A stretch of DNA of 32,000 nucleotides, taken from NCBI RefSeq assembly GCF_000014265.1, contig NC_008312.1, forward strand, positions 1,650,001 through 1,682,000, given 5' to 3'. The translations under genes were made by a program, and so were the position numbers. Position 1 is the stretch's first letter. Each line of letters starts with the position of its first letter. The DNA is from Trichodesmium erythraeum IMS101. GTDB lineage: Bacteria; Cyanobacteriota; Cyanobacteriia; Cyanobacteriales; Microcoleaceae. The notes beneath the pieces were generated by a model that saw only the letters and a list, made by a program, of their open reading frames with translations, was not told where the DNA came from and ran no database searches. This document shows positions 5,834 to 28,770 of the stretch, piece after piece.

Positions 5834-5921
5834 TAATAAGGGATGAATCATGATTAAATCTTTAGGGAATAAAACTTTTAGGTTAGGCGATCGCTAATTA
5901 AATTTAGAATCGTGGCCATAA

Positions 5922-6380
5922 TTGTACTACAGGTGTCAACAAGAATATTTAAGGAAAAGATTATTGGCAATTAAATACTTGTATGAAAGAAAAACTAGAA
6001 CAGAAGTATCAGATTTATTAAATTGTCATTCTCAAACTTTATCTACTTGGATAGATAAATTTTTAGAAGGAGGATTAAAGAATTTACTAGAACTAATGAC
6101 TCACCAAGTATCATCAAGATTAAATATAGAGCAGAAACAGGAATTAAAAATAATGATACTGGAAGAATTACCCAGAGATTATGTGGTAGATAGAAACAAA
6201 TGGAGCTGGTAAAATTATTAGTAATGTTATTGAATTAAGATGGGGAGTAAAACTGAAAATAATCGAGAATATATGAAATTTTAAAGAAACTAAATTTATC
6301 AGCTCAAAAAGCCCATAGAAATTATGCTAATGCCAGCCAAGAACAGCAAAAAACATTTTTTTTAAGTCTAAAAAAAATTG
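5922..6380 (+). mobile_element. Truncated, frameshifted IS630-family transposase remnant
   Basis: ORF 5922-6212 reads RKRLLAIKYLYERKTRTEVSDLLNCHSQTLSTWIDKFLEGGLKNLL...LNIEQKQELK..ILEELPRDYVVDRNKWS. This is a typical IS630 N-terminal HTH region. It continues after a frameshift as KIISNVIELRWGVKLK..SRIYEILKKLNLSAQKAHRNYANASQEQQKTFF. The DDE catalytic part is missing. Confidence 0.65.
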
Positions 6381-6559
6381 GCATCATATTTGTACTTTAG
6401 CTTAGCTAGATTAAAGTGTACATAACTACCAATAATTGTTTTGGTAAATATTCTTTTTGGGGGTTTGTATTATAGTTTTTGCTGTAATTCAGTGTTTAAG
6501 ATCGCGATCGCTAAATTGAACCATTCTATATGGATAAAGGTTTTATCGTTTTGCTGCTC

Positions 6560-7070
6560 TAATTGGCCTTTATAACATTTATACTACATAATTGGTAATC
6601 TTCTAGCAGGAAAGGAGTAGTCATAGCGACATCACTGCTTAGGTTATTACAGCTACTGTTTCCATCTCTCCTGTTGCTTAATTGACACCTAGATATAACT
6701 TGCCCTTACCTAGACCATGCTGCCTAATTTTCCACTTTCCCCCACCATAGACTTTGACTACCGTAGAGTCTACTAACAGGTGTATTGCTTTGCTCCCAAT
6801 GGTACTACTGACATTAGTATGTCCATTTTTTTTGATTCGACGGGATACAGTAGTGTAATTTTGTATAGATAAATCTAGTTCCATGGCTGGTAGATATAGA
6901 TTATAAAAAGCCCTCTTGTTGCTTGTAGTCCTGGCTAAGTATAAATAGATTTTAGTATTACCATTAATTCAATGGCGACATTACTGTACGTGTTAGATAC
7001 TCTTAATAGTGCAGTTTTGCTTGAATTCAAACACTTTTCTATCACCTAGGGGAGATAGCTAAAATTTTAG
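6560..7070 (-). mobile_element. Degraded IS5-family (IS903-like group) transposase remnant
   Basis: ORF 6678-6884 reads NYTTVSRRIKK....KAIHLLVDSTVVKVYGGGKWKIRQHGLGKGKLYLGVN, matching the IS903-type block YTTVS.R.K......G.IHLVVDSTGLKV.GEGEWKV..HG...RR.WRKLHLGVD. Downstream, out-of-frame text ATGEMETVAVIT resembles ATGEI.A..LT. Upstream, YSNVAIELMVILKSIY.LPGLQATRG resembles YSD.AI....VIK.VF.L.LR..QGF. Several stops and frameshifts are present. Confidence 0.6.
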
Positions 7071-10000
7071 GTTTCCTGTCTATTTTAAGAACACATAATA
7101 TTTAGATTAGTTATTCACCCAGTAGTTAAATTTGGACTGAATATAGACTTACTAATGTTTACTTCGTGGAGTAGCTTTTAATCAAGTTATCCTTTCTAAG
7201 TATACCTCATATCTCATACTAATGGATATGATATTTTTTATGTTTCCTATGCCTTAAAATTAAAAAAAATTGTACACTTTAGACAGGTTAAAAAGCCTAT
7301 AAGAGATTTGTCGTAAAATTAAAAGAAAATTATAATTTATGAGTAACATCAATTTGAGCTAATTTATTGTCATAAATATAGCAATCCTATTTTTACATTC
7401 TGCAGAATATTGCCACTTTTTGTCAATATAAATTGGCTTAATAGGCAAGAGTTTTGGAATTTATTTCTAGTCTAGTTTTTGAATTTTTACAACCTAATTT
7501 AGAATTGCTATATACTATTCAGTTTTGATTATTTTTATCCTTAGGGAATGAAAAGCTAGCTGAAAGCTATATAGAGCATTAATTTTGCTATCGGTAACTG
7601 AAAAATGCTTCAACATTAAAAAATGTTTATTGAGAATTGATGAGGGTAAGGCGCGAGAAATACACCCCCTACCCTAGAATAATTATTTATTTATTATAAA
7701 CAACTTTTAAAACAGTTAAAAATATGATAAAAATGGTTGATAATTACAAACAAAAAAGAATCAAAAGTGAATATATTGAGCGTTATTCAAGACCTTATAT
7801 AAAAAAATTAAGTTCATTTCAACTAATAACATTATAAATATTATTTATTATATTTAATTGACCGATATAAAGCTGTACAAATATCAAAGCTAATCAATTA
7901 TTGTTTTCGAGCATAACAGAGAAAGTAAAATAAAAAATATACCAATTTTTTTAACTATTTAATTGCTTTATTTGTCAATTTATATCTTCAATTTTTCATA
8001 TGATTTGAAACTCAAACTCAGAGGGCATAAGTGTGATGATTGGCTTAAGTCATTACTTGCAATATATTCTCCTGAAGTTGGAATAAAAATTTTCTCATAA
8101 GGAGTTTTACTTTTTGCTCCCGAAGGAATTCCTTTAATCTTAATTATTTTGCCTGATATTTTATCTGACTCAACCCAATTTAACTATTCAATATTTTTAT
8201 ATTTTTCTACATTGTTAGTATCATCAACGTACTAGATTTATTTTTAATGGAAATAATAAATTTTTCTTAAGTTATCTCTCAATGCCATTAACCTTTTTTT
8301 TAAATACCAACTATCCATTAATACAGTTGTAAATAGTATTTTTTTTGTTTATAGCTATATTCAATAATTTATTTAACATAGTCTCTCCTCAGGTTTTTTT
8401 CAGCATCTAGGTCATCAATGCCATTACTAATAATCTATAATTATTATCTTTGAGGATAAAAATAGACACAGCTAATTACTCCTATACCTAAATTAATTAA
8501 TATTAATTACTACTATATTGTCTGCCGAAAAGTACCTCTTTCAGAGAAGCGACCCTCTCAATCAGGGAGCAAGTTTTTTGTTAATAATTATGTCATCAAA
8601 ATCAGATATCCTTCTGTTTCGGTCACAATTTTTTTTGACATTTTGTCATAAATATAGAAAGCTTAAAGTTACTATTTTGAAATAATGATTATTGCATCAT
8701 GGCTAATCTTTTAGATTGGAGTTTTCTGATTTTTTTATAGTATAGTTAGCTTAAAAAAAATCAGCAAATAAGTATTGACAGTAATCAATATAGTTAAAAT
8801 TAATATTCTCTATATTTAGATATTTTTTTATTGTTTAATAATTAGATTTTTCATTTAATTTATTCAATAAAATTAAACCATATTTTTCATAATTTTTTCT
8901 ATAATTACTACTTAAAATAACTGGTATTAAAGATAGTTTCTATTCAGAAAAAAAAGGGGCCATAATTGAAAATACTCAACCCCAGAATGTACACTGTATC
9001 TATTGTACCCGTGTAATTCCTAGCAATATTTAAAGACTATAAAATAGTGGTTATAATTTGGAAATAGACTACCTGCCTGCGACTAATCAATTAATAACAT
9101 AATAACAGATTTATTTTAAAAAAAACTAATATTAAGTCTGCTTTAATGGGGAGATATTCATAAAACTCAAAACTCTTGCCTTATAATAATTTGGGTACTT
9201 AAATACCTACTTTATAATAACCAGATTTTATCTGAAAAGTCAACGGATAGACAGGGGAGGCTTTAAATCAAATTTTTCGGTAAAAATACCAAAAATTCCC
9301 TAAGACTATTTAGTTCCATTTACTACTTTATTAATATATTTTTTTTATAACTATTAATTTTGGTAGAGCTAGATCTAAATACAAAATAATGCCATCTCAA
9401 ATAACGGTAGAGTAGAATCAAATTTTGAGTAGGTAGTACGAGTACAACACAATACTTAATACTTTAGAATAACTAATTTTATTTTTACCTTCTTTGTGGC
9501 TTTTTTCTTTGTTTGTCAGCTAACTTTGAGGTGCTGGTATCTGCACTAATTAAACATTGGGGTTCGGTGTGAGGACATATCTTAATTTTATTCTTTTGAA
9601 GCACATCCCCTATCCATTACTCCTACTCCATTTTTGGGAATTGTCTCTATAGTTTTAAATACTTATGTATCGTCATGTCTTTGCCCAAAATGAATGGCTA
9701 TTATTCCTACTTCTGCTGTCCAACTATATTGTCTACAAAAAAAACTTTCCCGGATGGTATCCTTGACTCGATAGTAGTTTACTTGTTAACCCAATTATTA
9801 TTGAATTAATTAGAAATAATCTTAGACTTTATGCTACTCCTTATTTGATTATTTAATTGTTTTTTCGCTTGATAATTATTTCTTGAAAAATTAGCGAATT
9901 TCTTTTTGAAATAGCAATCATTAAATTTGATATTTTTAGGTTTATTCCTTGATAGTTTAGTCTTTGAAATAAATCCCCCATACTGCGTATACTTTGGTTC

Positions 10001-11571
10001 ATTAAATATATATATTTTAACCACAACTGAAAAATGTAAATTTATCTAAACTAGATAATCTTTTCTCTGGTTAGGTTTTCAAATATATCTCACTAATATA
10101 CAGAAAGCTTCTTACCATAATCATTCACAATTAGCTTTTCTTTCTTTTTTGCAATTGTATCATATAAATAACTTTTTTCTAACATTCAATACTTTTTAGA
10201 AAAACCTAAACATAGATTTATATCTCACTTGAAAAAACTAGATCAATAACTGTAGCAATAGACAAACTTGATACTTTATTTATTGGTTAGTTAAAATAGC
10301 TTAAGTAGGTCGGTGTTAAAATTTGTCGCTATGTAACAAAATATAAATTCACCTCAAATAAACTCTGTGAATAAGCTTGGAGTCGGTCCACAAATATTAA
10401 TATGGCTAAGTTTTTTTATACTTATTATATATAACTTTGATTTTTATTCAAAAATGTCATAAAAACCAACTAATCAATATAAGTGTCATTAATTATTATT
10501 ATTGGAATTTAGAAAAAAATAAAAATAGTTATGGTAAATATTAAACTAACTACGATAGAGTTTAAAGGCAGAGTTAAACCAAAGATAATGTTTATTTATC
10601 AACGTTTTGAGAATCTTAAAAAGGATCATCATTGGTCTGCTTCAATTCTTCCACCAAAAAATGTTCAAATAACCTTATTAAAGGAAATAAACTATCATCT
10701 TTAACTAATCAATAAAATTCCTTAGATCTATTTTTTTGACTGTATCAATATGAGCTTCACTACCAGCTTTTCCTAAATATTTATATTGATTTTTTTTCTG
10801 ATGATCAGTAGCCTGATTAAAAATAGTATATCTAGATTTTAATTAATAATAATAGTAAAGTTTTTGATTGATATTGACTTAATAAAGAATGAGATACACT
10901 TTAGGATAATTGACCTATCCCTCTTGTTCAATGGTAGTAATTTTTTTGCTCTTACTTTATAAATTAAGCTCTTGATTTGTTTCCCTATAAGGCTAGTTTA
11001 AAATTTAGTTTAACAGATTTTTTATGTATTTATTATAGTGAACATAACAACCTTTTTTGCAATCATATATTTATCTATTCAATGAGTTAATACTAATCAA
11101 AAATCAAGAAAAAAATTAAAATAGTCAAGGATTTCTTATGCTGGAGAAAAAACCTATATAATGGACTTAGTACAAGAAAAAAAACTCATATAACTACTAA
11201 ATACCTTCTCATCAAATACTCATAGTCTATTCAAAAATAGCATCTTATAATCATCCTTACTACGAACTCCCCATCAAGTTATCATCAAAGGTAAAAAAAT
11301 CCAAAAAACAACAAAAAGTTTTTTAGGAGTAGGTGACAACTTTTAATTATTGTCATTTTTTGGTGATTAAATTCACTTGAGACAGGGAAATAATTCTCAT
11401 GTTTAGTTAGTGTAATATTGACCCTAACTATTTTCCTTTTGTCCCAAGTCCAAATTATTAACTGCACTCATGAACAAAATATTCAAGTATAGGATCAATT
11501 AATATTAGAAGAACAAAAAAAAATAAATCAATCTTGTAAAAATCAAGTCTTTCTCTGTTCTAAATACTATT

Positions 11572-14551: not shown

Positions 14552-15617
14552 ATATGACGTACTTTTTTATTGGTGGATATCTTTGTTATGAAACTACATT
14601 TATGAAAAATTATTATTTGCTCCAATACCAAGGTTGATCCATTAATTGAATAAATAGATTATCTATATCATTTAGTTAATGTTCATAGTAAAGGTAAATA
14701 GGTAAAATTAATTTTGAAAGCCAAAGTAAATATTATTTTTCCGAACTAGCATAACTCATAAATTTTAGTGCTGAATTAGCCAATAATTTTTTTTTTAATA
14801 TTTGAAAGCGTTATGCTGATAATACTAATATTGCCCTAAAATACCCTATTATGGGAGAGTTATTTCCAGATATTTATGACCTTGTCAAAAATGTAAAATT
14901 TATATTTATTATTCAAGAACTACGAGATACTATTGTGTCTTTAATTAAAGTAGGAAATAAAATGGCTATTTAGGGTTAAATTAGGCATTTAAAACCGATG
15001 TTTACAGAAATAAAATAATCATAATTTATAAATTTTTATTGTCGTACTTATCCACCTTAATACAATTGTCAATTACTAGGTTTTTAAATAATGGTTGGTT
15101 ATATCAAATATAAATTTTAGTACTTAATCCTGAAAGGAGAATTAAGCAACTTCAAGACTTTACTGGTTTAAGTTTAGGTAGCTTTATAAAAAATTATAAA
15201 TGCCAGGGAAGTAAAATTAGTTATAGTCAGTTAAGTGATACAGAAAAACCTTGGTATTCATAACTTTATGGCAAAGAAATATTAGCTGTAAGTGTGGGGC
15301 TTTATCTTCAGGTTTTGCGAAAGGAATAAATTTAATTTATTCATAAAGAGGGAACAGATATATTTATAATTTTTAGATATTAAAAAGTAGCGATCGCCTT
15401 TCATAGCAATTAGAAAAAATAATCTGAGAAATCTCAAACAAAATAGTTAGAAATTTTTGCCGAGGAGCTACCTATATTTCTACGTGCCAGTCAAAATTCA
15501 ACTTCCCTAACCCCCATAATACAAAATTAATCTATGAATGAGATTCATAATTTACTGATGTCTGTATCTCTAAAAATCTTCAAATTTTACGTGAGGAATA
15601 AATTAAGTTGCTTCAGA

Positions 15618-15650
15618 GAGAAGGAATAGAGAAGGAATAGAAAAGGAATA
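15618..15650. repeat. Three tandem copies of an 11-nt unit, GAGAAGGAATA / GAGAAGGAATA / GAAAAGGAATA
   Basis: Read directly from the sequence at 15618-15628, 15629-15639 and 15640-15650. The repeat lies about 100 nt beyond the 3' end of the MscS-type gene. Confidence 0.7.
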
Positions 15651-15755: not shown

Positions 15756-16877
15756 CTAATTTTGACTAGACTGCCAATTTTGATAAGTTTCTGTATCACT
15801 AAGAATATTCACATCAAATAAATCTATTTCCTCTTGCTCCAATAAAGCTAATATTGCCAAATTTAATTGGTCATAAGCTCTCGAATAATTGTCTAAATCA
15901 TTAGTAAATCCAATTACTCTAATCACACGAGCATTTTTTTCTAATCCATTAAATCTCACGACACAAGAGTCATATAAAAGGTCAATTGATTTGGGAATTC
16001 CTCGAATTTTATCGTTAAGATAAGCTATCTTTCTAGCTGAAATTCCATCAATCTTGATATACAAATCAATAGCTGCTTTCTTCTTTTCATTTGGCTGTTG
16101 GGATAAATTTTTAATATTACCATCAATCATTTTAGAGTTAGGAACTTTCAGGGTAGCTCCCTCAAAACCTATATAAATTGTTGTACTTCTAATACCAATA
16201 TGTTTAACCTCTGCCCAACGACCACTTGGCAATAAAAGCCAATCATCTATGCGATACAAACTATCACTATAAATTATAATAGTAGCTAACCAATCACCTA
16301 CGAAATCCTTAAATAATAGACCTAATGTAAGACCAGCACCACCGATTAAACCAAGTAATGCAGTAGCAGAAGCTCCCAGTAATAATTCTGCTACTTTTAA
16401 ACCAAATATTACGATGGCAGTTAATCTTAGTAGTTTCGGAATATAGGGGCTAATAATATCATCCAATTCAGTGTCTGTTTGAGCTGATAAAATTATAAAA
16501 AATTCTCCTAAAATTGGAGATATACGGTAGATAATTAGAGCGAAATTACCTACTATTGCTAAATTAATAATTCCTGTGATTGTTTGATTTAATTGTGGAG
16601 AAATATAATCTGTCAATATTAATTGTATTATCCACAATCCTAGTAAATAGATAAACCATCCAATAGGCTTTTTAAGAACTGCAATTAATTGATCATCAAG
16701 GGTTGTTTTTGTCTTACTAGTTAAAGCCTCAATTCGTTTAATTACAATTATGCTTAATAATCTTTTGAAGACTAATGTTGTTATTAGTACCAGGCATATA
16801 AAAAGTATTGTTATGACTGGTATATTCATAATTTTGATAGTTGTGATATTGTTGATAATTACCGAAATTGCTTCCAT
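15756..16877 (-). CDS. Mechanosensitive ion channel (MscS family) protein
   Basis: 373-aa ORF with several N-terminal hydrophobic helices. The MscS beta-domain pattern follows: FKDFVGDW...IDDWLLLPSGRWAEVKHIGIRSTTIY...GATLKVPNSKMIDGNIKNLS (GD.I...G.V..IG.RST.I....G..v.vPNs.....i.N.S). Confidence 0.8.
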   Translation of the reverse strand: MEAISVIINNITTIKIMNIPVITILFICLVLITTLVFKRLLSIIVIKRIEALTSKTKTTLDDQLIAVLKKPIGWFIYLLGLWIIQLILTDYISPQLNQTITGIINLAIVGNFALIIYRISPILGEFFIILSAQTDTELDDIISPYIPKLLRLTAIVIFGLKVAELLLGASATALLGLIGGAGLTLGLLFKDFVGDWLATIIIYSDSLYRIDDWLLLPSGRWAEVKHIGIRSTTIYIGFEGATLKVPNSKMIDGNIKNLSQQPNEKKKAAIDLYIKIDGISARKIAYLNDKIRGIPKSIDLLYDSCVVRFNGLEKNARVIRVIGFTNDLDNYSRAYDQLNLAILALLEQEEIDLFDVNILSDTETYQNWQSSQN

Positions 16878-17702
16878 AATTGGCTAATAATAATTAGGTT
16901 AAAGTAATTGAAAAAGTTTGTAGTTTTTAAGTTAATAGTCAATGTTATTAATTAATAAGAAGGTGGTAGATTTAGGTAGAGTGGTAGACTTTTGTAATCT
17001 GGACCTCATTTCCTACAACCTACTCATATATTCAGAGGATAATCCCTATAACTTATAAAGCTTCATAAAGCTTAAAAATCAACTCTGCTCTTACCCCTGA
17101 TCTGAGAGAACTCATCCATTTATAGGTTTATATAGGATACATTTTTTAATACTACTGTAATTTTACCAAATTATTTCACATATATAGCACTTTGCACGAC
17201 TAATTAGTACAGGATAATAGTAAGTAGAATAAGTTCTAATTTGCTCAAAGTTTATGATTCCAATTATTGAGCTTAACTTTTATGGAAAGGACTGTATGTT
17301 TGAAACTACTTGTGATATTTTCTTACTTTTCGTATTACTAGGTTATAAGTACTCAGAGTTTAACTATAAACTATCAGCTTCATTAGTTTTAAATCTCAGA
17401 GTAAATGCTAATAGCTGAATGCTTAAGCTAGATTATAAATGTTTAATATTTTTGTAAGTAAATAGGCAAATTTATATAGTAAATTTGAAATTTGAAATAT
17501 TTAATAATATTCATAACCAATTACTTGTAAGAATTTTCAATTTTAGAAAAATAACAATTTTATAAAACTTTAAAGTATGATATAATTAAAATATATTAAA
17601 AAAACTAAATAACTGTATAATTAGGTTGTTAATGCTAAAGAAAATTTTACCTACATATAGTGTGTTTTTATAATACAATTAAAATCTGTCACTATAGGTA
17701 GA

Positions 17703-20700
17703 ATGCATTATTCGATGAGCCCTAATACTGAACCACAAATTAGTTATTTCCGAGAATGGACTAATAGCTGTGTTGATGACCAATTAATCCACCTTAACGT
17801 TGTCCCATTAGAAGGACAACGAGCTTATGAATTTTTATTTTATTCTGATGCTATTCCTCGACGAAATGATGGTCGAGTCACAAGCGAAATATTAAACCGA
17901 TACCAACATATTGAAGAAGGTGGGTGGTGGTGTTCTGGAATTGATTTATTATCAGGAGAAGAAGATTTTTGGGGTTGTTTTAAACCTAGTCAACCACGTC
18001 ATAGTTACGACGAAAAAAAAATAATTAAATATGAGCACCCTCCCAAAACTCCTACTAGTTTATTTGCTCTAAAAATTCCCCTACATTTATGGCATAAAAT
18101 AGCGAGTCATTATCAATTAACAATTTTGCCAGAAGATATTGATAATAATCAACCAGACTTTGGTTTTTGGCAGTGGTTTATCGCCCATCCTCAAATACCT
18201 TTATGTATTACTGAAGGGGCAAAAAAAGCAGGAGCTTTATTAACAGCATCCTATGTAGCTATTGCCTTACCAGGAGTATTTGGTGGATACCGAGTTTTGA
18301 GAGATGAATATGGTAACCGTATTGGTAAACAACATTTAATTCCCCAGTTAGAAAAGCTGATTAATAATACTCGAGAAATTTATATTGCATTTGACCAAGA
18401 TACTAAAGCTAAAACTATTAAAAATGTTAATGCTGCCATTAGAAAAACTGGATATTTACTCATAAAAAAGGGATGTAAAGTTAAAGTAATTTCCTGGAAT
18501 CCAGAATTAGGTAAAGGAGTAGATAATTTAATCGCTAATCATGGAAAAAATGTTTTTGATGAAGCTTATAAAAAGGCATTACCTTTAGAACTTTGGAAAG
18601 CTAAATCATTTATTCGTCTCACATATCCGGTAAATTTGAGAGTTAATAGTCGCTATCTTTCAGAACAAAATATATTTAATTCTATAGACAATAATAACAA
18701 TAACTTACATAAATTAGACGACATTGATTTAGATTATAGTATAAATTTTCCCGCTAAACTTATAGGAATAAAATCTGCTAAAGGAACTGGAAAAACTAAG
18801 TTTTTAGAAAAAATAGTTTCTGAAGCTGTAGCTCGTAATCAAAAAGTTTTAGTTATCGGGCATCGGGTACAATTAGTACAGGAATTATGTCAACGTTTTG
18901 GATTAAAATATATTACAGAAGTTAACTCAAAATCCCCAGATAAATTATTAGGTTTAGGGTTATGTATTGACTCTTTACATCCTAATTCCCAAGCTAACTT
19001 TAATCCAGAAACTTGGTCAGATGGAATAGTAATTATTGATGAAATTGAGCAAGTAATTTGGCATGCTTTAAATTCTAATACTTGTAGGAAAAGTAGAGTA
19101 AAAATTCTCAGATGTTTTAAAGCGTTAATGCAAAATATTTTAGGGGGTGCAGGTAAAGTATTTATAGCTGATGCTGACCTCAGCGATATTTCTATAGATT
19201 ATTTACAAGCTTTAGCAGGAGTAAAATTAGAACCTTTCATTGTTCAAAATGATTGGTTACCTGGAGAAAAAGAAGCTTGGAAAATTTTTAATTACCCAGA
19301 AACAACTCCCAAAAGATTAATAGCAGATTTACAAAAACATATTCGTGAAGGTGGCAAACCAATAGTTTGTTTATCAGCGCAAAAACTGACAAGTAAATGG
19401 GGGACTCGTGCCTTAGAAGCTTATCTGAAAAAACAGTTTCCCAAATTAAAAATTCTGAGAATAGATTCAGAATCTTTAGCAGAAGTAAATCATCCTGCTT
19501 ATGGTTGTATTAAGTCATTAAATCAAGTATTACTAAAGTATGATATTGTTTTAGCTTCTCCCTCAATTGAAACTGGAGTTAGTATTGATGTTCAAGGGCA
19601 TTTTACTTCAGTTTGGGCAATTGCTCAGGGGGTGCAGGGAGCCACTTCTGTTTGTCAATCTTTGGGTAGAGTTCGTGAGAATATTCCTAGATATTTGTGG
19701 GTAGCTAATTGTGGTTTTAATCAGGTAGGTAATGGTTCTACTTCTATAACTTCTTTGCTCAATTCTGAGCAACGTTTGACTCAATTAAATATTCGGTTAT
19801 TACAACAATCTGATTTTGATAGTTTAGATGATTTGGAAGTAGGTTTTCAGGCAGAATCTTTTTTGTGTTGGGCAAAAATGGCGGTCCGCTTTAATGCTGG
19901 AATGAATCAATATAGAGAGTCAGTTTTAGAATTTTTACGAATAGAAGGACAGCAGATCATAGAAGTTTCTGCAGAAGCTTTACCTGAAAATTTAGAAGAA
20001 AAAAAATCATCAGAAACTCCTGAAGAAATTAATACTTTGCAGGAAGCTATAGCTATTGTAATTAAGCAAAACTATCAGACAGAATGTGAGGCGATCGCTA
20101 CTGCGAAAAGTATTAGTTTATTTGAGTATCAAAAACTCACAAAAAGATTATCAAAACCAATTCAACAACAACGAGAACAACGTAAATTTGAGTTGATGTT
20201 ACGTTATAGTATTCCCATAACTGCTGAATTAGTTCAGAAAGATGATCGGGGGTGGTACCAACAGTTGCAATTACATTATTTTATGACAGTAGGGCGACCG
20301 TATTTACCAGCCCGGGATGGGGAAGTAGTAAAAAAATTGTTGGAGTTAGGTAAAGGTAATATTTTTATTCCTGATTTTAATGACTCTTTATTAGGTGCAA
20401 TTATTGGAGTAATAGAATTATTAAAAATACCTTCATTATTGAAGGATAAAAAACGAGAGTTGAAAAATATAGACCCAGATTTACAATTATTAGGAAAAAC
20501 AGCTTTGTCAAACCGAACAGAAATTAAAACTATATTAGGAATAGGATTAGCTGCTAACTCTAGCCCCATTATAATTGTTAGGCGTTTTTTGGAGAAAATT
20601 GGCTATAGTTTGGAATGTTTACGAACAGAAACTCACCATAAAAAACGATTGCGAATTTATCGAATTTTTCATCCTGATGATGGTAGGTTTGAAGTATTTC

Positions 20701-20750
20701 AGCAATGGTTGAGCTCAAGCCATAACTCAAAGGTCAGAACTTGTGTATAA
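17703..20750 (+). CDS. DUF3854/Toprim-like plus P-loop NTPase protein, resembling cyanobacterial plasmid replication initiators of the CyRepA1 family (primase-helicase-like)
   Basis: Intact 1015-aa ORF. The N-terminal region contains WWCSG, KYEHPPK, ITEGAKKAGALL (Toprim Glu, near nt 18213) and IAFDQDTK (DxD, near nt 18393), then GKGVDNL. Together these are the DUF3854 signature. A Walker A motif SAKGTGKT (nt 18774-18797) and a Walker B motif IVIIDEIEQV (about nt 19026-19055) follow. The long alpha-helical C-terminal half has no motif I recognise. The family name is recalled from memory, not from a search. Confidence 0.75.
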   Translation: MHYSMSPNTEPQISYFREWTNSCVDDQLIHLNVVPLEGQRAYEFLFYSDAIPRRNDGRVTSEILNRYQHIEEGGWWCSGIDLLSGEEDFWGCFKPSQPRHSYDEKKIIKYEHPPKTPTSLFALKIPLHLWHKIASHYQLTILPEDIDNNQPDFGFWQWFIAHPQIPLCITEGAKKAGALLTASYVAIALPGVFGGYRVLRDEYGNRIGKQHLIPQLEKLINNTREIYIAFDQDTKAKTIKNVNAAIRKTGYLLIKKGCKVKVISWNPELGKGVDNLIANHGKNVFDEAYKKALPLELWKAKSFIRLTYPVNLRVNSRYLSEQNIFNSIDNNNNNLHKLDDIDLDYSINFPAKLIGIKSAKGTGKTKFLEKIVSEAVARNQKVLVIGHRVQLVQELCQRFGLKYITEVNSKSPDKLLGLGLCIDSLHPNSQANFNPETWSDGIVIIDEIEQVIWHALNSNTCRKSRVKILRCFKALMQNILGGAGKVFIADADLSDISIDYLQALAGVKLEPFIVQNDWLPGEKEAWKIFNYPETTPKRLIADLQKHIREGGKPIVCLSAQKLTSKWGTRALEAYLKKQFPKLKILRIDSESLAEVNHPAYGCIKSLNQVLLKYDIVLASPSIETGVSIDVQGHFTSVWAIAQGVQGATSVCQSLGRVRENIPRYLWVANCGFNQVGNGSTSITSLLNSEQRLTQLNIRLLQQSDFDSLDDLEVGFQAESFLCWAKMAVRFNAGMNQYRESVLEFLRIEGQQIIEVSAEALPENLEEKKSSETPEEINTLQEAIAIVIKQNYQTECEAIATAKSISLFEYQKLTKRLSKPIQQQREQRKFELMLRYSIPITAELVQKDDRGWYQQLQLHYFMTVGRPYLPARDGEVVKKLLELGKGNIFIPDFNDSLLGAIIGVIELLKIPSLLKDKKRELKNIDPDLQLLGKTALSNRTEIKTILGIGLAANSSPIIIVRRFLEKIGYSLECLRTETHHKKRLRIYRIFHPDDGRFEVFQQWLSSSHNSKVRTCV

Positions 20751-20919
20751 CAAATTTATACTCAACAAAGCTTTATTGTTTTTGGGTTATTTTTTGGGAT
20801 ATTCCTCCGTTTACTAGACCCTATTTACCCTTATTGCAGCATTTTAGATGTGTCATTCAAGAGTGTTCCTAGAAACCATGTTTGGCACAGAAACTTGTCA
20901 TTTTAAAATTGGTAATTTG

Positions 20920-20974
20920 GTAAGTATTTATGCTGTTAAAATTTCTTAGAAAAAGATTTAGCATAAATACTTAC
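20920..20974. terminator. 15-bp perfect inverted repeat between convergent genes (possible bidirectional terminator)
   Basis: GTAAGTATTTATGCT (20920-20934) and AGCATAAATACTTAC (20960-20974) flank a 25-nt loop. Downstream is TTAATTTTTTATTT and upstream is an A-rich run. The stem is AT-rich and the loop is long, so terminator function is uncertain. Confidence 0.4.
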
Positions 20975-21147
20975 TTAATTTTTTATTTCATGTTTACCAT
21001 TATAATTTTCTTCTAACTTATAACTCAGAAACTATTTATTTAAGACTACATTATGTCTGCAAAAATATAGGCTATAATATTGTTAACCTCGAGTTTTTAC
21101 TTGTAGTTGATGACTTATACCTAGAGTTATATTAGTCACATTATTAG

Positions 21148-21966
21148 TCACATTTTTGTTCCTGATGCCACTAACGCAGACATAGGTAAAATTAATGTAT
21201 TTTTATCAACATAAGGTTGTGATATTTGATGAAAAGCTGCTTTAATATCTGCAATATTTTCCTGAGCTTGACTCCGAAGTAAAGCACCTGTTCTAGGAGC
21301 ACCTTTATAGAAAGCATCAAACCATTCATCAGCATTTGCTAACTCCCAGGCCAAAGAAAATTTACTTACTAAAGGACTAGAAAAGCCAGCATTTTTTAAT
21401 CCATAAATACAGTTTTGCTCTTCACTAAAATAAAAAAATGGAGGCCCTTCAGGCAAAGATACTTCTAAATTTCCATGAGCTTTAACTACTTCATAAACTA
21501 GCTTCATACCAATACATTTATCCATTATATCCCAAGCAGTAAAAGCAAATTTTCCTGCATAACGCAAAACTCTAAATGCTTCATTGATTGCCTTTTGAGG
21601 TTCAGCCAAATGTAAAATACCAAAATTCATCACAACAGCATCAAACTCTTCATTTTCAAAAGGTAAAAATTCAGCTCCTCCTTGAATAAATTCTAGGTCA
21701 GGATTAAGTTGTTTAGCCTTATTTAACATCCCATCAGAAAAATCTAATCCAATTACATTACATTCACGTTTAGCAGCATCTGTAGCTACATAACCAGGTC
21801 CAGTAGCAATATCAAGTATTTTGTTTCCTTTTTTGGCGTTGACAGCATTCAGAAGTGGTTGAATCATTTGATTAGTTAGAGAAGCAAAAGAACTATCGTA
21901 TTGGTCTACAGATTTTTGCCACGCATTATATTCAAATTCTCTAAATTTTTTGATTGAATTACTCAT
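21148..21966 (-). CDS. Class I SAM-dependent methyltransferase (Methyltransf_11-like)
   Basis: 272-aa ORF with motif I ILDIATGPGYVA, an acidic post-I residue in GLDFS, and motif II/III FDAVVMNFGILHL. The substrate is unknown. Confidence 0.85.
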   Translation of the reverse strand: MSNSIKKFREFEYNAWQKSVDQYDSSFASLTNQMIQPLLNAVNAKKGNKILDIATGPGYVATDAAKRECNVIGLDFSDGMLNKAKQLNPDLEFIQGGAEFLPFENEEFDAVVMNFGILHLAEPQKAINEAFRVLRYAGKFAFTAWDIMDKCIGMKLVYEVVKAHGNLEVSLPEGPPFFYFSEEQNCIYGLKNAGFSSPLVSKFSLAWELANADEWFDAFYKGAPRTGALLRSQAQENIADIKAAFHQISQPYVDKNTLILPMSALVASGTKM

Positions 21967-22963: not shown

Positions 22964-24496
22964 ATGACTGAGACTATACAGCGCAAAATGAAACTAAATA
23001 GTTTTGATAAATTTAAGGCAGAAAAAGATGGTCTAGCAGTAAAAACAGAAATAGAACATTTTGCTAAAATAGGTTGGGAAGCAATAGACAAAACAGACCG
23101 CAACCACAGACTTAAATGGTTGGGTGTATTCTTTAGACCTGTAACTCCAGGCAAATTTATGTTACGGATGCGTATGCCTAATGGAATGCTCTCAAGTCAA
23201 CAAATGCGAGTCTTGGCAGGAATAGTCCAACGCTACGGCGATGATGGCAATGCCGACATTACCACCCGACAAAATTTACAACTGCGAGGAATTGCAATTG
23301 AAGACATTCCAGACATTTTCAATAGACTTGAAAAAGTTGGCTTAACCAGTGTTCAATCTGGCATGGATAATGTGCGAAATATCACAGGTTCCCCAGTTGC
23401 TGGCATTGATGCTACCGAACTATACGATACCCGTGAGTTAATCAAGCAAGTCCAAGACATGATTACTGACAACAATAAAGGCAACTTTGAGTTTACTAAT
23501 TTACCAAGAAAATTCAATATAGCGATCGCCGGATGTCGTGATAATTCAGTCCACGCCGAAATCAACGATATTGCATTTATTCCAGCCTACAAAAATGATA
23601 AATTTGGCTTCAACGTTCTGGTAGGTGGCTTCTTTTCCGCCAAACGGTGCGAAGCCGCTATACCTCTAAATGCTTGGGTAGAACCCAATCAAGTCATTGC
23701 CCTTTGTCGAGCTATCTTAGAAGTATATCGTGATTACGGACTCCGGGAAAATCGGCAAAAATCAAGGTTAATGTGGCTTATTGACGAGTGGGGGCTCACA
23801 AAGTTCCGCTCACAAGTTGAGAAACAAATAGGGCTAACTCTAGAAACAGAAGCCCTCAAAGATGAAATTCTCTGGGAAAAGCGTGACCACATTGGCATTT
23901 ACAAACAAAAACAACCAGGGTTAAACTACATTGGGTTAAATATTCCTGTTGGCAGATTATATGCTGTCGATATGTTTGACCTAGCTCGTTTGGCTGAAGT
24001 TTATGGCAATGGAGAAATCCGTTTGACGGTAGAACAAAATGTCATCATTCCTAATGTTCCTGATTCTCGGCTGGAAACATTTAGAAGTGAACCCCTCCTG
24101 AAAAAATTTTCTTTTGAGCCTCAACCACTAACTAGAGCTGTAGTTTCTTGTACAGGATCACAATTTTGTAACTTTGCCTTGATAGAAACTAAAAATCGCG
24201 CCTTAGCAATAGCAAAAGAACTAGAAACGGAACTATCAATACCAAAACCAGTACGCATTCATTGGACTGGTTGCCCCAACTCTTGCGGACAACCACAGGT
24301 TGCAGACATTGGTCTGATGGGCACTAAAGTTCGCAAAAACGGGAAAATGGTCGATGGTGTTAATCTATATATGGGTGGGAAAGTTGGTAAAGATGCTCAA
24401 CTTGGCAGTTGTGTTCAAAAAAGTATTCCTTGTGAAGACCTCAAGCCAATATTGCGGAGTTTGCTAATTAAAAATTTTGCTGCTCAACCAAAATAA
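22964..24496 (+). CDS. nirA: Ferredoxin-nitrite reductase
   Basis: 510-aa ORF preceded by AAGGAAAAG. It has the sulfite/nitrite reductase fold signatures and the siroheme/4Fe-4S Cys cluster SCTGSQFCNFA ... TGCPNSCGQ, plus N-terminal NKFEKxKxEKDG-like text (FDKFKAEKDG). Confidence 0.95.
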   Translation: MTETIQRKMKLNSFDKFKAEKDGLAVKTEIEHFAKIGWEAIDKTDRNHRLKWLGVFFRPVTPGKFMLRMRMPNGMLSSQQMRVLAGIVQRYGDDGNADITTRQNLQLRGIAIEDIPDIFNRLEKVGLTSVQSGMDNVRNITGSPVAGIDATELYDTRELIKQVQDMITDNNKGNFEFTNLPRKFNIAIAGCRDNSVHAEINDIAFIPAYKNDKFGFNVLVGGFFSAKRCEAAIPLNAWVEPNQVIALCRAILEVYRDYGLRENRQKSRLMWLIDEWGLTKFRSQVEKQIGLTLETEALKDEILWEKRDHIGIYKQKQPGLNYIGLNIPVGRLYAVDMFDLARLAEVYGNGEIRLTVEQNVIIPNVPDSRLETFRSEPLLKKFSFEPQPLTRAVVSCTGSQFCNFALIETKNRALAIAKELETELSIPKPVRIHWTGCPNSCGQPQVADIGLMGTKVRKNGKMVDGVNLYMGGKVGKDAQLGSCVQKSIPCEDLKPILRSLLIKNFAAQPK

Positions 24497-24905
24497 GTCT
24501 GTGCTCAAAGTTATTGAACGAGTACACAGAGAGTTATTCAATTCTTACCCAGTAGTACCATCCTGCTTGATGTAAAGGATAGGTTATGGCTAAGGCCATG
24601 CTCCAAATTTTCCTTTGGTTATACTGCGTCAATTAAAAAGCGAAAATATCAACATATCATCAACACTGGAAAAAATTAAAAAAATAGAATAAAATAGATG
24701 ACAGTGTTATTGATAAGGTAAGAAAAAGATGATATTGTATATGGTATTAGTACAGTAGACATTAGAAAAAGTTGTTAATAAACAAAAAATAATAGAAATA
24801 ATATTAACAACCAGACCTACTCAAAAAGCATTTTCATTTTGATTTCATGGGGGCATTTCAGCTATAACATAGCTTTGGACCATTTCTGCAATTATCAATA
24901 AAAGT

Positions 24906-26414
24906 ATGTTAACAAAACTCTGGTCTTTTCGCGGTCGTTACCGCATTCTCCATTTAACCTGGTTTGCTTTTTTTCTCTCCTTTGTTGTTTGGTTTAACTT
25001 AGCACCATTAGCAACAGCACTAAAAGAAGACTTAGGTTTAGAAACTTCTCAAATCAGAACTATTGCCATCTGTAATGTAGCACTCACAGTACCTGCCCGA
25101 ATTATCATCGGAATGCTACTAGATAAATACGGACCAAGAATCACCTATTCACTCTTGCTCATGTATGCAGCCATTCCCTGTATTGGCTTTGCTTTAGCCC
25201 AAAACTTTAGCCATTTGGTAATCAGTCGTTTGGCATTAAGTATTGTAGGTGGTGGTTTCGTGATTGGTATCCGCATGGTAGCAGAGTGGTTTCCCCCTAA
25301 AGAAATAGGTTTGGCAGAAGGTATTTATGGCGGTTGGGGTAACTTTGGTTCTGCTGGCGCTGCCTTTACACTCCCAACTATAGCGGCTTGGTTAACTTTT
25401 GGTTCAGGCGATGTCTTAAATTGGCGGGTATCGATCGCTCTGACAGGTATTATTGCTGCACTCTATGGTGTGTTTTACTTCTTTAATGTTCTAGACACTC
25501 CTCCTGGTAAAACATATCAAAAACCGAAATGTGCCAGAGGCTTAGAAGTTACTACCCCAAAAGATTTCCTTTTTTTGGTTTTGATGAACATTCCTTTAAC
25601 AGGAGTTCTGTGTTTGTTAGGTTGGCGTTTAAGTAAAGTAGGTTTCTTATCCACAAGTCAACTTTATATTGTCTGGCTAGTGCTATTAGGTTTATACGCT
25701 TTCCAAACTTATAACTGTTGGATAACCAACAAAGAGTTAATTGCTCAAGAAAAACACTATCCCCCTAGCGATCGCTATAAATTCTCTCAGGTAGCAATTT
25801 TAGAGTTAACTTATTTTGTGAATTTTGGTTCTGAATTAGCAGTAGTTTCTATGCTGCCTGCTTTCTTTGAAAATACTTTTGGTCTTAGTAAGACAATGGC
25901 AGGAATGATTGCTGCTAGTTATGCTTTTATGAACTTGGTATCTCGTCCTGGTGGTGGTTTAATTTCTGATAAGTTAGGTAGTCGTAAATTAACAATGACA
26001 GTATTGACTGTAGGGATGGCGATCGGCTATTTGACAATGGGTAACGTTAAAGGAAGTTGGTGGTTGCCTGCAGCGGTGTTGCTAACGATGCTTTGTTCTT
26101 TCTTTGTTCAAGCTGCAGAAGGTTCCACTTTTGCCATAGTTCCCCTAATAAAACGGCGAGTGACTGGTCAAATAGCAGGTAATGTAGGTGCTTATGGTAA
26201 CGTAGGAGCAGTCTTATATCTGACTTTGTATAGTTTCCTGCCTGAAGGTGCTATTGGTGACAAGATTTTCTTTGAAGTTATTGGTGTGACATCAATGATC
26301 GTTGCTTTCATCTGTGCATTCTTTCTCAAAGAGCCAGAAGGTTCATTTGCTGAACACCATGAGGGAGAAGAGGAAGTACAGATAGAATCTCATACCTTAT
26401 TCGCTGAGGAATAA
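24906..26414 (+). CDS. nrtP: MFS nitrate/nitrite permease (NNP family, NrtP/NapA type)
   Basis: 502-aa, 12-TM-like ORF. It carries two NNP signatures, GGWGNFGSAG and AGNVGAYGNVGA, and the typical N-terminus RILHLTWFAFFLSFVVWFNLAPL. It sits between nirA and narB, as in marine cyanobacteria. Confidence 0.9.
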   Translation: MLTKLWSFRGRYRILHLTWFAFFLSFVVWFNLAPLATALKEDLGLETSQIRTIAICNVALTVPARIIIGMLLDKYGPRITYSLLLMYAAIPCIGFALAQNFSHLVISRLALSIVGGGFVIGIRMVAEWFPPKEIGLAEGIYGGWGNFGSAGAAFTLPTIAAWLTFGSGDVLNWRVSIALTGIIAALYGVFYFFNVLDTPPGKTYQKPKCARGLEVTTPKDFLFLVLMNIPLTGVLCLLGWRLSKVGFLSTSQLYIVWLVLLGLYAFQTYNCWITNKELIAQEKHYPPSDRYKFSQVAILELTYFVNFGSELAVVSMLPAFFENTFGLSKTMAGMIAASYAFMNLVSRPGGGLISDKLGSRKLTMTVLTVGMAIGYLTMGNVKGSWWLPAAVLLTMLCSFFVQAAEGSTFAIVPLIKRRVTGQIAGNVGAYGNVGAVLYLTLYSFLPEGAIGDKIFFEVIGVTSMIVAFICAFFLKEPEGSFAEHHEGEEEVQIESHTLFAEE

Positions 26415-26565
26415 GATTGAAAAGCCTTAATAAAAATGGGTTTTAGCGATTTTTATTGCCTTGTATTTACTGACATTTTCTCGGTTATGCTGCACCCTTG
26501 AGGTATTTTTTACCCCAGAAAATTTGTAAGTACTATTAGTAAGTTTCCAAAAAATTAAGTGCACT

Positions 26566-28770
26566 ATGAAAACTACAAAAACTGCTTGCCCTTATTGTGG
26601 CGTAGGCTGCGGATTAGAAGTATCACCACCAGCAACCCCAGGAAAAGTAACAAATCGCGATAGTAAAGGTAATCCAACTTGGCAAGTACGGGGCGATCGC
26701 TCTCATCCATCAAGTCAAGGCAAAGTTTGTCTCAAAGGTGCTACCGTTGGCGAAGCATTGGATAAAAGTCGCCTTAAGTATCCAATGATGCGCAATACCC
26801 TAGATGAAGCTTTTCGTCGTGTTACTTGGGAAGAAGCCTTTCGGCGCATTGTTAACCAAATTCAAAAAGTACGTTTTTCTCAGGGACCAGATGCAATTTG
26901 TATGTATGGGTCTGGTCAGTTCCAAACAGAAGACTATTACGTTGCTCAAAAGTTGCTTAAAGGATGTCTGGGAACTAACAACTTTGATGCCAACTCTCGC
27001 CTCTGTATGTCTTCAGCAGTATCTGGATACATTCAAAGTTTTGGGTCTGATGGTCCTCCTTGTTGCTACGATGACTTAGAAAAGACAGACTGTGCATTTT
27101 TAATAGGTACTAATACAGCCGAATGTCATCCTATTATCTTTAACCGTCTCCGGGCATCTAAAAAAAGAAATAAAAAAGTCAAAATGATTGTGGTAGACCC
27201 CCGTCGTACCAAAACCGCAGAAGTAGCAGACCTACATTTGGCAATTCGACCAGGTACAGATATTGACTTACTTAATGGTATAGCTAATCTGCTCATACAG
27301 TGGGGTTTACTGGATGCAATGTTTATAGATGAGTGTACGAAGGGCTTCCCTGAATACGTAAATATCATTCGTCAGTATCCACCGGGGCTGGTAGCACGTC
27401 ATTGTGGAATTCGCTTGGATGAGTTGGAAACAGCCGCTCGTTATTGGGGAAAATCCGAGAGAGTTTTATCTTTGTGGTCAATGGGGATGAATCAGTCATC
27501 AGAGGGTACAGCAAAAGTGCGAACCTTAATTAATCTTCATTTAATGACAGGTGATATAGGCAAACCAGGCACAGGTCCGTTTTCTCTTACTGGTCAACCA
27601 AATGCCATGGGTGGAAGGGAAGCAGGTGGACTAGCTCATCTTTTGCCTGGTTATCGAATGGTAAAAAATTCTCAACATCGTGCTGAGGTTGAAAAATTGT
27701 GGGAACTAACTCCCGGAAAAATTTCTGATGTACCTGGTCGCAGTGCTTGGGAAATGATTATGGCTTTGGAACGCAAAGAAATTGGTTGTTTGTGGATTGC
27801 GGCCACTAATCCTGCTGTGAGTATGCCTGATTTAAAACGGACTAAGGCTGCTTTGTTGCGATCGCCTTTTACTATTTATCAAGATGCTTATTATCCCACC
27901 GAAACAGCTGAATATGCTCACCTATTATTACCGGCAGCTCAGTGGGGAGAAAAAACAGGCACTATGACAAATTCGGAGCGAGTGGTGACTTTGTGTCCGG
28001 CATTTCGTGAACCTCTCAGAGAAGCTAAAGCAGATTGGGAAATCTTTGCCGAGGTAGGTCGCCGTTTAGGATTTACAAATCACTTTAATTTTGCTGACTC
28101 GGAAGCTGTCAGAGCTGAGTTTTTGGAATTGACACGGGATCGCCCCTGTGATATGACAGGCATTACCTATCAACGACTCCAAGAAAAAGGTCCGACTCAA
28201 TGGCCTTGTCCTGATAGTAGTGGCGTATCTCAGGAGCGTCTGTATACTGACTTTCGATTTAATACTCCCGATGGCAGGGCGAGGTTTGCAGCATATTACT
28301 CTCAAGGACTAGCAGAACCACCTAATCCTGATTATCCATTCATTTTAACAACTGGACGATTATATGGTCATTGGCACACTCAAACCCGTACAGGGCGTAT
28401 TGAAAAAATTCGCAAAATGTATCCCCTACCATTTATGGAAATTCATCCCCAGGATGCTCAGAGATTGGAGATTTCAGATAATGATTGGGTAGAAGTAAGG
28501 TCGCGAAGAGGTTATAGCAGATTTCCAGCCAAAATCACCAAAGCTATTACTCCAGGTACTGTATTTGTACCGATGCACTGGGGTGCATTATGGGCACATC
28601 AGGCAGAGGCAAATACTCTGACTCATCCTCAAGCTTGTCCTGAGTCTGGACAACCAGAGTTAAAAGCTTGTGCTGTACAGTTACAACCAGTTAAATTTCA
28701 AGCAGCTCCTATAGCGCTATGGGCAAGTAAAAAGTCAACCCCCTTGGGAGAAGTAAAAAGCTCAAAGTAA
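26566..28770 (+). CDS. narB: Ferredoxin-dependent assimilatory nitrate reductase (molybdopterin oxidoreductase)
   Basis: 734-aa ORF. The N-terminal 4Fe-4S motif is [10 protein letters not shown]...GD..HP.S.GK.C.KG. Molybdopterin-binding regions follow ([26 protein letters not shown]), then a C-terminal barrel (ILTTGR...HWHT.TRTG, V.V.SRRG). Confidence 0.95.

Follow-up and report, generated by a model that had tools for sequence, protein, structure and literature searches.

A chromosome-borne branch of the CyRepA1/DUF3854 family in Trichodesmium erythraeum IMS101 and other cyanobacteria, with a conserved paired-site element in the predicted promoter

Analysis of a 32,000-nucleotide stretch of Trichodesmium erythraeum IMS101 DNA (NC_008312.1, positions 1,650,001 to 1,682,000; hereafter the window, whose coordinates are used throughout) revealed an intact open reading frame (ORF) of 1015 aa at 17703-20750 on the forward strand, with no interruption, whose product belongs to the CyRepA1/DUF3854 family. 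An exact-sequence match identified the product as ABG50435.1/WP_370496647.1, and the gene is located on the 7,750,108-bp chromosome of IMS101. It lies between an MscS-type channel gene (15756-16877) and an S-adenosylmethionine (SAM) methyltransferase gene (21148-21966), both on the reverse strand, in agreement with the chromosomal site given in the original prediction made from this DNA; farther out are genes for a CCA-adding enzyme, ycf34 and a tsaB-like protein upstream, and nirA-nrtP-narB downstream. The first ATG of the ORF (17703) is GTG in relatives, and a stop codon occurs after that position in several Okeania genomes. The ATG at 17715 is kept in 14 of 14 close relatives and is also the start used by RefSeq. 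It is probably the true start, from which the gene (17715-20750, forward strand) encodes 1011 aa.

Profile searches placed DUF3854 (PF12965) at aa 155-283 with an E value of 3.1e-52, and gave sub-threshold Pfam matches to Toprim, ResIII and Herpes_ori_bp. The last of these (PF02399) scored 17.7 bits, below the gathering cutoff of 20; a precomputed PF02399 match is present in some orthologues. Over aa 351-972, the protein scored 545.4 bits (E 2.2e-163; cutoff 200) with NF042913, the NCBIfam model for plasmid replication proteins of the CyRepA1 family, a result that bears out the family assignment of the original prediction. The motifs on which that assignment had drawn, ITEGAKKA, FDQDTK, SAKGTGKT and IVIIDEIEQV, were all found in the translation, so its description of an intact ORF joining a DUF3854 Toprim module to Walker A and B motifs holds. 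Their key residues (E, DxD, GTGKT and DE) are invariant across orthologues, and the protein has the domain order of CyRepA1, an N-terminal DUF3854 domain with a DEXDc-type superfamily 2 (SF2) helicase.

Four domains could be delimited, all encoded on the forward strand. The N-terminal conserved domain (17715-18164) carries the motifs PRRNDGR, GGWWCSG, WGCFKP and IKYEHPP and invariant H, C, C and H residues, and was modelled with moderate confidence; the motifs of these ~150 aa are common to plasmid CyRepA1 proteins, and a role like that of a zinc-binding domain is our conjecture. It is followed by the DUF3854/Toprim-like domain (18165-18551), with the invariant E of ITEGAKKA and DxD of FDQDTK and a predicted local distance difference test score (pLDDT) above 90. 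The SF2 helicase core (18741-19814) contains Walker A GTGKT and Walker B DEIE, and its predicted fold is nearest to viral origin-binding proteins, namely UL9 of herpes simplex virus 1 (HSV-1) and those of nucleocytoplasmic large DNA viruses (NCLDV). The C-terminal helical domain (19812-20747) closes with a helix and a beta-hairpin in a winged-helix-like arrangement, and is a candidate DNA-binding domain.

The AlphaFold2 model, built from a 55-sequence alignment, had a mean pLDDT of 76 and a predicted TM-score (pTM) of 0.70, with the Toprim and helicase domains confidently modelled. A PDB sequence search with the protein returned nothing significant. Foldseek comparison of the model with the PDB found HSV-1 UL9 bound to OriS as the best match (9hgi and 9hgj; E 1e-12), followed by generic SF2 helicases at about 1e-8. 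Among viral predicted structures (BFVD), the best matches came from giant viruses, herpesviruses and phages and were replication origin-binding proteins and DEXDc helicase-primases (E 1e-28 to 1e-20). TM-scores to these UL9-type and viral origin-binding matches were only 0.3-0.5. As modelled, the helicase and accessory domains are structurally similar to UL9-type origin-binding proteins, in that both have a C-terminal domain after an SF2 helicase. UL9, however, has no Toprim domain, the C-terminal domain of the window protein taken alone does not match the UL9 DNA-binding domain, and the window gene belongs to a cellular chromosome, not to a virus. The T7 gp4, Twinkle and DnaG-DnaB proteins are alike in having a Toprim domain N-terminal to a helicase, and possibly also in the N-terminal Cys/His module, but their helicase is a RecA-type SF4 hexamer, whereas that of the window protein is of the SF2 (monomer/dimer) type, with primase activity predicted.

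Protein searches found close relatives with 82-90% identity in Trichodesmium, Okeania, Dapis and 'Microcoleaceae', and beyond them a long plateau of ~1000-aa proteins with 55-64% identity from many orders, several of them on contigs larger than 5 Mb. Chromosomal orthologues (55-90% identity) were found in dozens of cyanobacterial genera; the best 80 relatives cover Oscillatoriales, Coleofasciculales, Spirulinales, Pleurocapsales, Chroococcales and some Nostocales. Counting one genome per species, at least 516 genomes encode a relative with the N-terminal motifs, a number that may include plasmid-type copies. Contigs as large as a chromosome (3.0-8.3 Mb) carry orthologues with 55-64% identity in Gloeothece PCC 7424, Lyngbya aestuarii, Moorena bouillonii, ESFC-1, Waterburya, Stanieria NIES-3757, Crocosphaera 51142 and Pleurocapsa 7319. 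Gene-by-gene inspection of two of these neighbourhoods, in PCC 7424 and L. aestuarii, showed the orthologue standing alone among ordinary host genes, with the exception of a CRISPR-Cas cluster 2-10 kb downstream in L. aestuarii. The gene had been called solitary in the original prediction, but it is not unusual in that sense, belonging as it does to this large group of chromosomal orthologues.

Plasmid copies are clearly more distant. PLSDB contained 252 plasmid records matching the protein, all below 60% identity (best 51%, typically 40-45%). In Stanieria NIES-3757, which has both kinds, identity to the window protein is 59% for the chromosomal copy and 43.5% for the plasmid copy; for Moorena, the corresponding values are 62% for the chromosomal copy of M. 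bouillonii versus 45% for a plasmid copy of M. producens. A midpoint-rooted neighbour-joining tree of 43 chromosomal-type and seven plasmid sequences (980 columns) placed every chromosomal sequence in one clade and the plasmid sequences outside it. The topology within the clade mirrors taxonomy: Pleurocapsales group together, as do Spirulinales, Crocosphaera with the spheroid bodies, Stigonema with Aetokthonos, and Trichodesmium with Okeania and Dapis. Median identity in the trimmed alignment was 63% between chromosomal sequences and 48% between chromosomal and plasmid sequences (at most 57%). Overall, the plasmid CyRepA1 proteins outside the clade show 38-57% identity.

Synechocystis sp. PCC 6803 carries both types. 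Its chromosomal member (P0218) is located on the 3.57-Mb chromosome downstream of asd-dapA-rnj-slr0552-coaE, and was identified as slr0554, annotated as DUF3854, by matching published CRISPR interference (CRISPRi) guide sequences and an internal slr0554 fragment to the locus. It is an orthologue of the window gene situated among housekeeping genes, in a neighbourhood that differs from that of the window gene. The window protein is 56% identical to slr0554 over 1005 aa. It also aligns end to end with the CyRepA1 protein of plasmid pSYSA (Slr7037), at 39% identity, sharing with it and other plasmid Reps (NF042913; PMC9978351, PMC10079941) the N-terminal motifs, the DUF3854/Toprim and DEXDc SF2 helicase domains and the C-terminal domain. 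The identity between slr0554 and Slr7037 is 38%. Since slr0554 is nearer to the window protein than to the CyRepA1 of its own cell, the two represent separate lineages, and this is the clearest evidence for the separation. They also appear to differ in specificity, because pSYSA cannot remain autonomous in slr7037 deletion strains (PMC9978351) despite the presence of slr0554.

The orthologue is also intact (1010-1013 aa) in five chromosomes, of 2.5-3.1 Mb, of the spheroid-body endosymbionts of diatoms: those of Rhopalodia gibberula, R. musculus, R. gibba and Epithemia adnata, and strain uoEpiScrs1. Relative to the R. gibberula copy, the other four have 84-92% identity. Spheroid-body genomes are all reported to lack dnaA and intact transposases (2026 preprint), and every one that has been sequenced keeps the gene intact. 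No UCYN-A orthologue was present by name among the best 120 relatives of the spheroid-body protein, which is a weak negative.

With at least ~55% identity to the chromosomal members and a position inside their monophyletic clade, the window gene is, by sequence comparison, a member of an ancient, vertically inherited, chromosome-borne group of the CyRepA1/DUF3854 family, which we call the slr0554 group. Unlike plasmid CyRepA1 genes, which are encoded on the plasmid that they replicate, it is chromosomal, syntenic with sister genera and in a clade apart from the plasmid copies.

Comparison of gene order supports vertical inheritance. The order tsaB-ycf34-CCA-MscS-gene is common to three Dapis-type genomes (L013-L015), and the adjacency of the MscS gene and the primase-helicase gene is common to a Trichodesmium metagenome-assembled genome (MAG) and another Microcoleaceae MAG. 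Synteny does not extend to the downstream side, and Okeania contexts differ. Synonymous divergence (dS) from Dapis was 0.27-0.31 for the gene, and 0.27, 0.28 and 0.20 for the CCA, MscS and tsaB genes, respectively. The ratio of non-synonymous to synonymous divergence (dN/dS) against Dapis was 0.11-0.19, below the 0.25-0.42 of the neighbours, and the ORF is full-length in every orthologue except L085 and L089, which are truncated by contig ends. The gene is under purifying selection, as had been suggested from its uninterrupted ORF. In marine metagenomes, in which the protein was indexed in 62 blocks, protein sequence and synteny were identical (23 contigs read and six loci inspected). No conserved neighbour gene, whether regulator, partner or defence-type, was found across 80 loci; the one large cluster of neighbours, a family of ~2,000-aa proteins, occurs near the gene in 19 of them and is too patchy to be a dedicated partner.

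Outside near-identical strains, the upstream region was alignable only for the last 60-160 nt before the start codon. Alignment with 14 close relatives revealed a nearly invariant block of ~75 nt, and the sole conserved non-coding element is a paired-site promoter region of ~55 bp just upstream of the start, which had escaped notice in the original prediction. All parts of it are read on the forward strand. The distal (left) conserved site, ACCTACATATAGTG (17649-17662), overlaps the -35 element and spacer of the predicted promoter. The -10-like hexamer TATAAT (17669-17674) lies between both sites, and most orthologues have TAnnnT here. The proximal (right) palindromic site, CACTATAGGTAGAA (17690-17703), begins 41 nt further downstream than the left site and has the clade consensus CACTA-N4-TAGTG. 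A T/A-rich spacer of 27 nt separates the left and right half-sites, which are inverted relative to each other. A generic promoter scan independently listed TTTACC-17-TATAAT ending at 17674 (10/12); promoter-like matches in the flanks were not above those in shuffled sequences. A second promoter-like element with an extended -10, TGATATAAT (17578-17586, forward strand), is kept in close relatives alone (Dapis and some Okeania).

Distant orthologues show the same layout: a distal site ending in ATnTAGTG, then a T-rich stretch with TAnnnT (TAAAAT, TATAAT, TACAAT or TAGAAT), then a 14-bp CACTA-N4-TAGTG. Of 81 unique upstream regions, 61 have the pair at a spacing of 40-43 nt, and in 42 of these it is exactly 41 nt; like nearly all members of the group, the window has paired TAGTG sites at this spacing with a -10-like hexamer within ~110 nt upstream of the gene. 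Half-sites drift among lineages (CACTA, CGCTA, CCCTA and CCCCA). Both slr0554 and the spheroid-body gene have the element upstream, and it was missing upstream of the seven plasmid CyRepA1 genes checked, including slr7037. Conversely, the upstream locus typical of pSYSA, with the ssr7036 mRNA and asRNA1, is not found at the window gene, where a small upstream ORF has no similarity to Ssr7036 and the clade-specific paired TAGTG sites stand instead.

In 1.49 Mb of loci, a position weight matrix (PWM) found 83 sites scoring at least 15 bits, 75 of which fall in the 160 nt before the start. The remaining eight, away from the promoter (L013:19526, L014:168, L021:16089, L026:40, L031:4636, L043:14788, L007:18097 and L022:6084), are probably chance matches. 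Because the PWM was trained on the upstream regions being tested, a non-circular test was run with a pattern derived from the window only: among 66 distant orthologues, TAGTG-N26-29-CACTA preceded 19, and it had no other occurrence in 1.17 Mb. In relaxed form, the pattern was found at 51 of the 66, against 0.03 expected per region. The inverted half-sites were also considered as an RNA hairpin; inspection by eye showed TAGTG and CACTA to be conserved with no compensatory changes between the arms, and a DNA site is favoured for that reason.

If the hexamer is the -10 element, the distal site would cover the -35 and spacer and the palindrome would lie at about +5 to +19. Such a layout would be a classic repression geometry, with both sites on the same helix face (41 bp being about four turns). 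The explanation that we favour, and hold somewhat better than even, is that the gene encodes a chromosomal primase-helicase of the slr0554 group, vertically inherited, active on chromosomal DNA and autoregulated through the paired sites. The protein would be an ATP-dependent DNA primase-helicase, judging by its motifs, and the paired sites would hold its promoter under tight negative control. Self-binding is suggested because the motif is confined to this promoter in the DNA sampled, accompanies the gene across orders and varies between lineages, and because no regulator gene is linked to the locus. The most likely binder would be the protein's own C-terminal domain, since replication initiators and plasmid Reps commonly autoregulate. 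More speculatively, binding at the paired sites could open the AT-rich spacer in the manner of an origin. Of the three explanations offered in the original prediction, a domesticated primase-helicase with a chromosomal function fits best, and the gene product is probably such an enzyme, resembling origin binders and autoregulated.

Several observations weigh against this explanation. The enzymatic activity is deduced from conserved motifs. The C-terminal 312 aa, modelled separately (pLDDT 79), gave no significant match in a fold search against the PDB, the best being winged-helix proteins at E values of 0.4 or more, and a DNA-binding role for this domain is for that reason a guess. The tree was midpoint-rooted and included only seven plasmid sequences, and the PWM shared its training data with the test, a weakness mitigated by the window-only pattern. 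No clear pair is present at the Nostocales-type loci L033, L038, L041 and L042 or the Planktothrix-type loci L054, L055 and L076; two of the four Nostocales-type loci (L041 and L042) have a single TACTATAT(A)TTGAGTG-like sequence near -32. These pairless loci may have a diverged operator or may have lost the control. The motif scans covered flanking DNA alone, so copies belonging to a regulon or an origin cluster may exist elsewhere, and a separate host transcription factor could bind the predicted sites.

The last point leads to the main rival, which we judge unlikely: a conserved host factor distinct from the protein, for example of a stress or DNA-damage regulon, would use the paired sites as its operator, and the protein would be an inducible repair or replication-restart enzyme. 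Palindromic sites bracketing promoters are typical of dimeric repressors such as LexA-type factors, and the 14-bp palindromic sites around this promoter are of that kind. The motif is nevertheless unlike the cyanobacterial LexA box, RGTACNNNDGTWCB. A stress response would be consistent with the change in slr0554 mRNA under manganese excess (log2 fold change -0.5 to -0.8) and the 6-fold drop of the Arthrospira homologue upon heat shift, a restart function with the weak sequence hints to PriA, and a separate binder with the lack of a proven DNA-binding fold in the C-terminal domain. Against a host factor, the motif is essentially restricted to this one promoter in 1.17-1.49 Mb of flanking DNA from ~80 genomes, no regulator gene is linked to the locus among the 80 examined, and drift of the half-sites is easier for a dedicated protein-site pair than for a global regulon.

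The gene and its paired sites could alternatively be a chromosomal Rep-origin module, derived from an old plasmid replicon, that supplies or backs up the DnaA-independent chromosome replication of many cyanobacteria; we consider this improbable. The protein would bind both sites, melt the AT-rich DNA between them, and then unwind and prime. This reading draws on the founder of the family, a plasmid initiator encoded immediately downstream of its origin (PMC9978351), and on the predicted fold, nearest to UL9, whose two recognition sites in OriS are inverted and lie on either side of an AT-rich spacer (PMC12543377), a geometry reminiscent of the half-sites inverted around the 27-nt spacer in the window. 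An initiator-origin role would also explain why the gene has been retained intact in every spheroid body, all reported to lack dnaA. The gene is present in Synechocystis 6803, which replicates without DnaA, and S. elongatus with a dnaA null mutation can replicate its chromosome from an integrated plasmid origin. Yet no orthologue was seen in UCYN-A within the limits given above, though UCYN-A is also without dnaA, and in GC-richer lineages (L077 and L086) the spacer is AT-rich at the -10-like hexamer alone, which fits a promoter better than a DNA-unwinding element. GC skew near the locus tracks gene strand only and is uninformative as a test of an origin.

Published data on slr0554 somewhat disfavour a functional origin. 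Its expression is constitutive at a moderate level. In a CRISPRi library, knock-down gave fitness values of -0.86 to -1.08 at high CO2 in intermediate or low light (adjusted P 0.005-0.01) and about 0 at low CO2 in low light, a mild cost compared with the -3 to -5 of essential genes. Both published guides (slr0554|8 and slr0554|24) sit on the -10-like hexamer and proximal palindrome (L099 5973-6008), outside the real coding region, because the annotated GTG start (L099 5962) lies upstream of the conserved ATG (6034). They should still block initiation, and the fitness values therefore stay informative. The guide offsets of 8 and 24 were considered as evidence for a transcription start site and rejected, as they are counted from the annotated GTG.

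It is very unlikely that the gene is a chromosomal Rep acting in trans for plasmids without a rep gene, or an anti-phage defence helicase. The spheroid bodies do have a ~6-kb, five-gene plasmid (feoAB, aqpZ) for which no rep gene is mentioned (2026 preprint), and PHROGs replication and helicase families match the protein. However, slr0554 does not rescue pSYSA upon deletion of slr7037 and cannot sustain that plasmid as Slr7037 does (PMC9978351), none of the PADLOC families matched the primase-helicase, and conserved defence-type neighbours were absent from the loci compared. The IMS101 record is a single 7.75-Mb chromosome. We know of no plasmid in T. erythraeum IMS101.

A recently integrated minimal plasmid replicon or novel mobile element, another explanation put forward in the original prediction, is the least probable of all and largely refuted by the standard that the prediction had itself set: the family is otherwise known from plasmids and decayed insertion sequence (IS) fragments lie ~11 kb away, but the locus has upstream synteny with Dapis, dS equal to that of its neighbours, host-like composition (gene GC 31-34%), a clade phylogeny that mirrors taxonomy and an identical protein and synteny over the marine metagenome contigs examined, and has no partition, integrase or relaxase gene among window ORFs of at least 80 aa (the absence of plasmid and mobile-element genes nearby had been predicted correctly), no repeats at its borders, and no known RNA family or tRNA target within the window.

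In the open-access full-text literature, the family is described as plasmid Reps alone, and neither the chromosomal clade nor the paired-site element is described; slr0554 appears there only as a protein of unknown function. Public databases already had an annotation for the gene, and the family was known; the novelty lies in the distinct chromosomal variant and its conserved control element. NCBI labels these chromosomal genes as plasmid replication proteins, and recognition of the clade corrects a systematic annotation inference. The branch is large and slowly evolving, with its own control element, a member in the main model strain (slr0554) and intact copies in obligate endosymbionts without dnaA or mobile elements. 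It supplies a sharply defined cis element with a candidate protein-DNA pair, and nominates a genetically tractable candidate for the way in which many cyanobacteria initiate or restart replication of the chromosome independently of DnaA. Should the protein prove to be merely an autoregulated repair or restart helicase, it would still be a new conserved cyanobacterial gene of DNA metabolism with its operator. Beyond cyanobacteria, DUF3854-containing ORFs are among the novel ORFs of the plastome of the fern Mankyua chejuense (PMC6220310), which hints that family relatives are also carried by mobile DNA into organelles.

The rest of the upstream intergenic region (16878-17648) is AT-rich, has no iterons and is not conserved beyond ~160 nt from the start. 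ORF-free AT-rich flanks had been singled out in the original prediction and are indeed present, at ~27-30% GC, but they are not special, because other intergenic stretches of the window are equal in composition (25% GC at 7-11 kb). Likewise, the short direct repeats reported there exist as weak two-copy families alone; the search of the flanks found no iteron or tandem arrays and nothing origin-like. The 15-bp perfect hairpin noted downstream is also real (20914-20980, with the core at 20920-20934/20960-20974 and a 25-nt loop), but unremarkable: it lies between convergent gene ends, is common to near-identical strains alone, and may be a terminator or due to chance. Two small tandem repeats, perfect or nearly so, were found close by, TATTAGTCACAT in two copies across the stop region of the methyltransferase gene (21130-21154) and AGAGAAGGAAT in three copies just downstream of the MscS gene (15617-15650).

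The methyltransferase itself (21148-21966) matched the PADLOC model 'mad2' (E 8e-21) across its generic SAM-methyltransferase domain, and the match is probably at the domain level because no other defence gene is nearby. The nirA-nrtP-narB nitrate-assimilation cluster (22964-28770) lies 2 kb downstream of the primase-helicase gene and has a GC content of ~41%, above its surroundings. In Lyngbya aestuarii, the orthologue is directly preceded by nitrate-reductase-associated (PF09655) and FdhD/NarQ genes (L009 9346-9798 and L010 4003-4940). The proximity to nitrate genes in both Trichodesmium and Lyngbya may be a faint trace of ancestral linkage.

Elsewhere in the window, two SulP-family paralogues (sulfate permease with STAS domain) are convergent, tail to tail, at 2249-3973 (forward strand) and 4059-5711 (reverse strand). 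The adjoining stretch 5900-11500, about 11 kb from the primase-helicase gene and unrelated to it, has 25-32% GC, no ORF of 100 aa or more and decayed transposase fragments, and fits the pseudogene-rich, low-coding genome of Trichodesmium. By eye, the ORF at 5922-6212 within it resembles the helix-turn-helix N-terminus of an IS630-type transposase, and that at 6678-6884 (reverse strand) a C-terminal piece of a DDE transposase.

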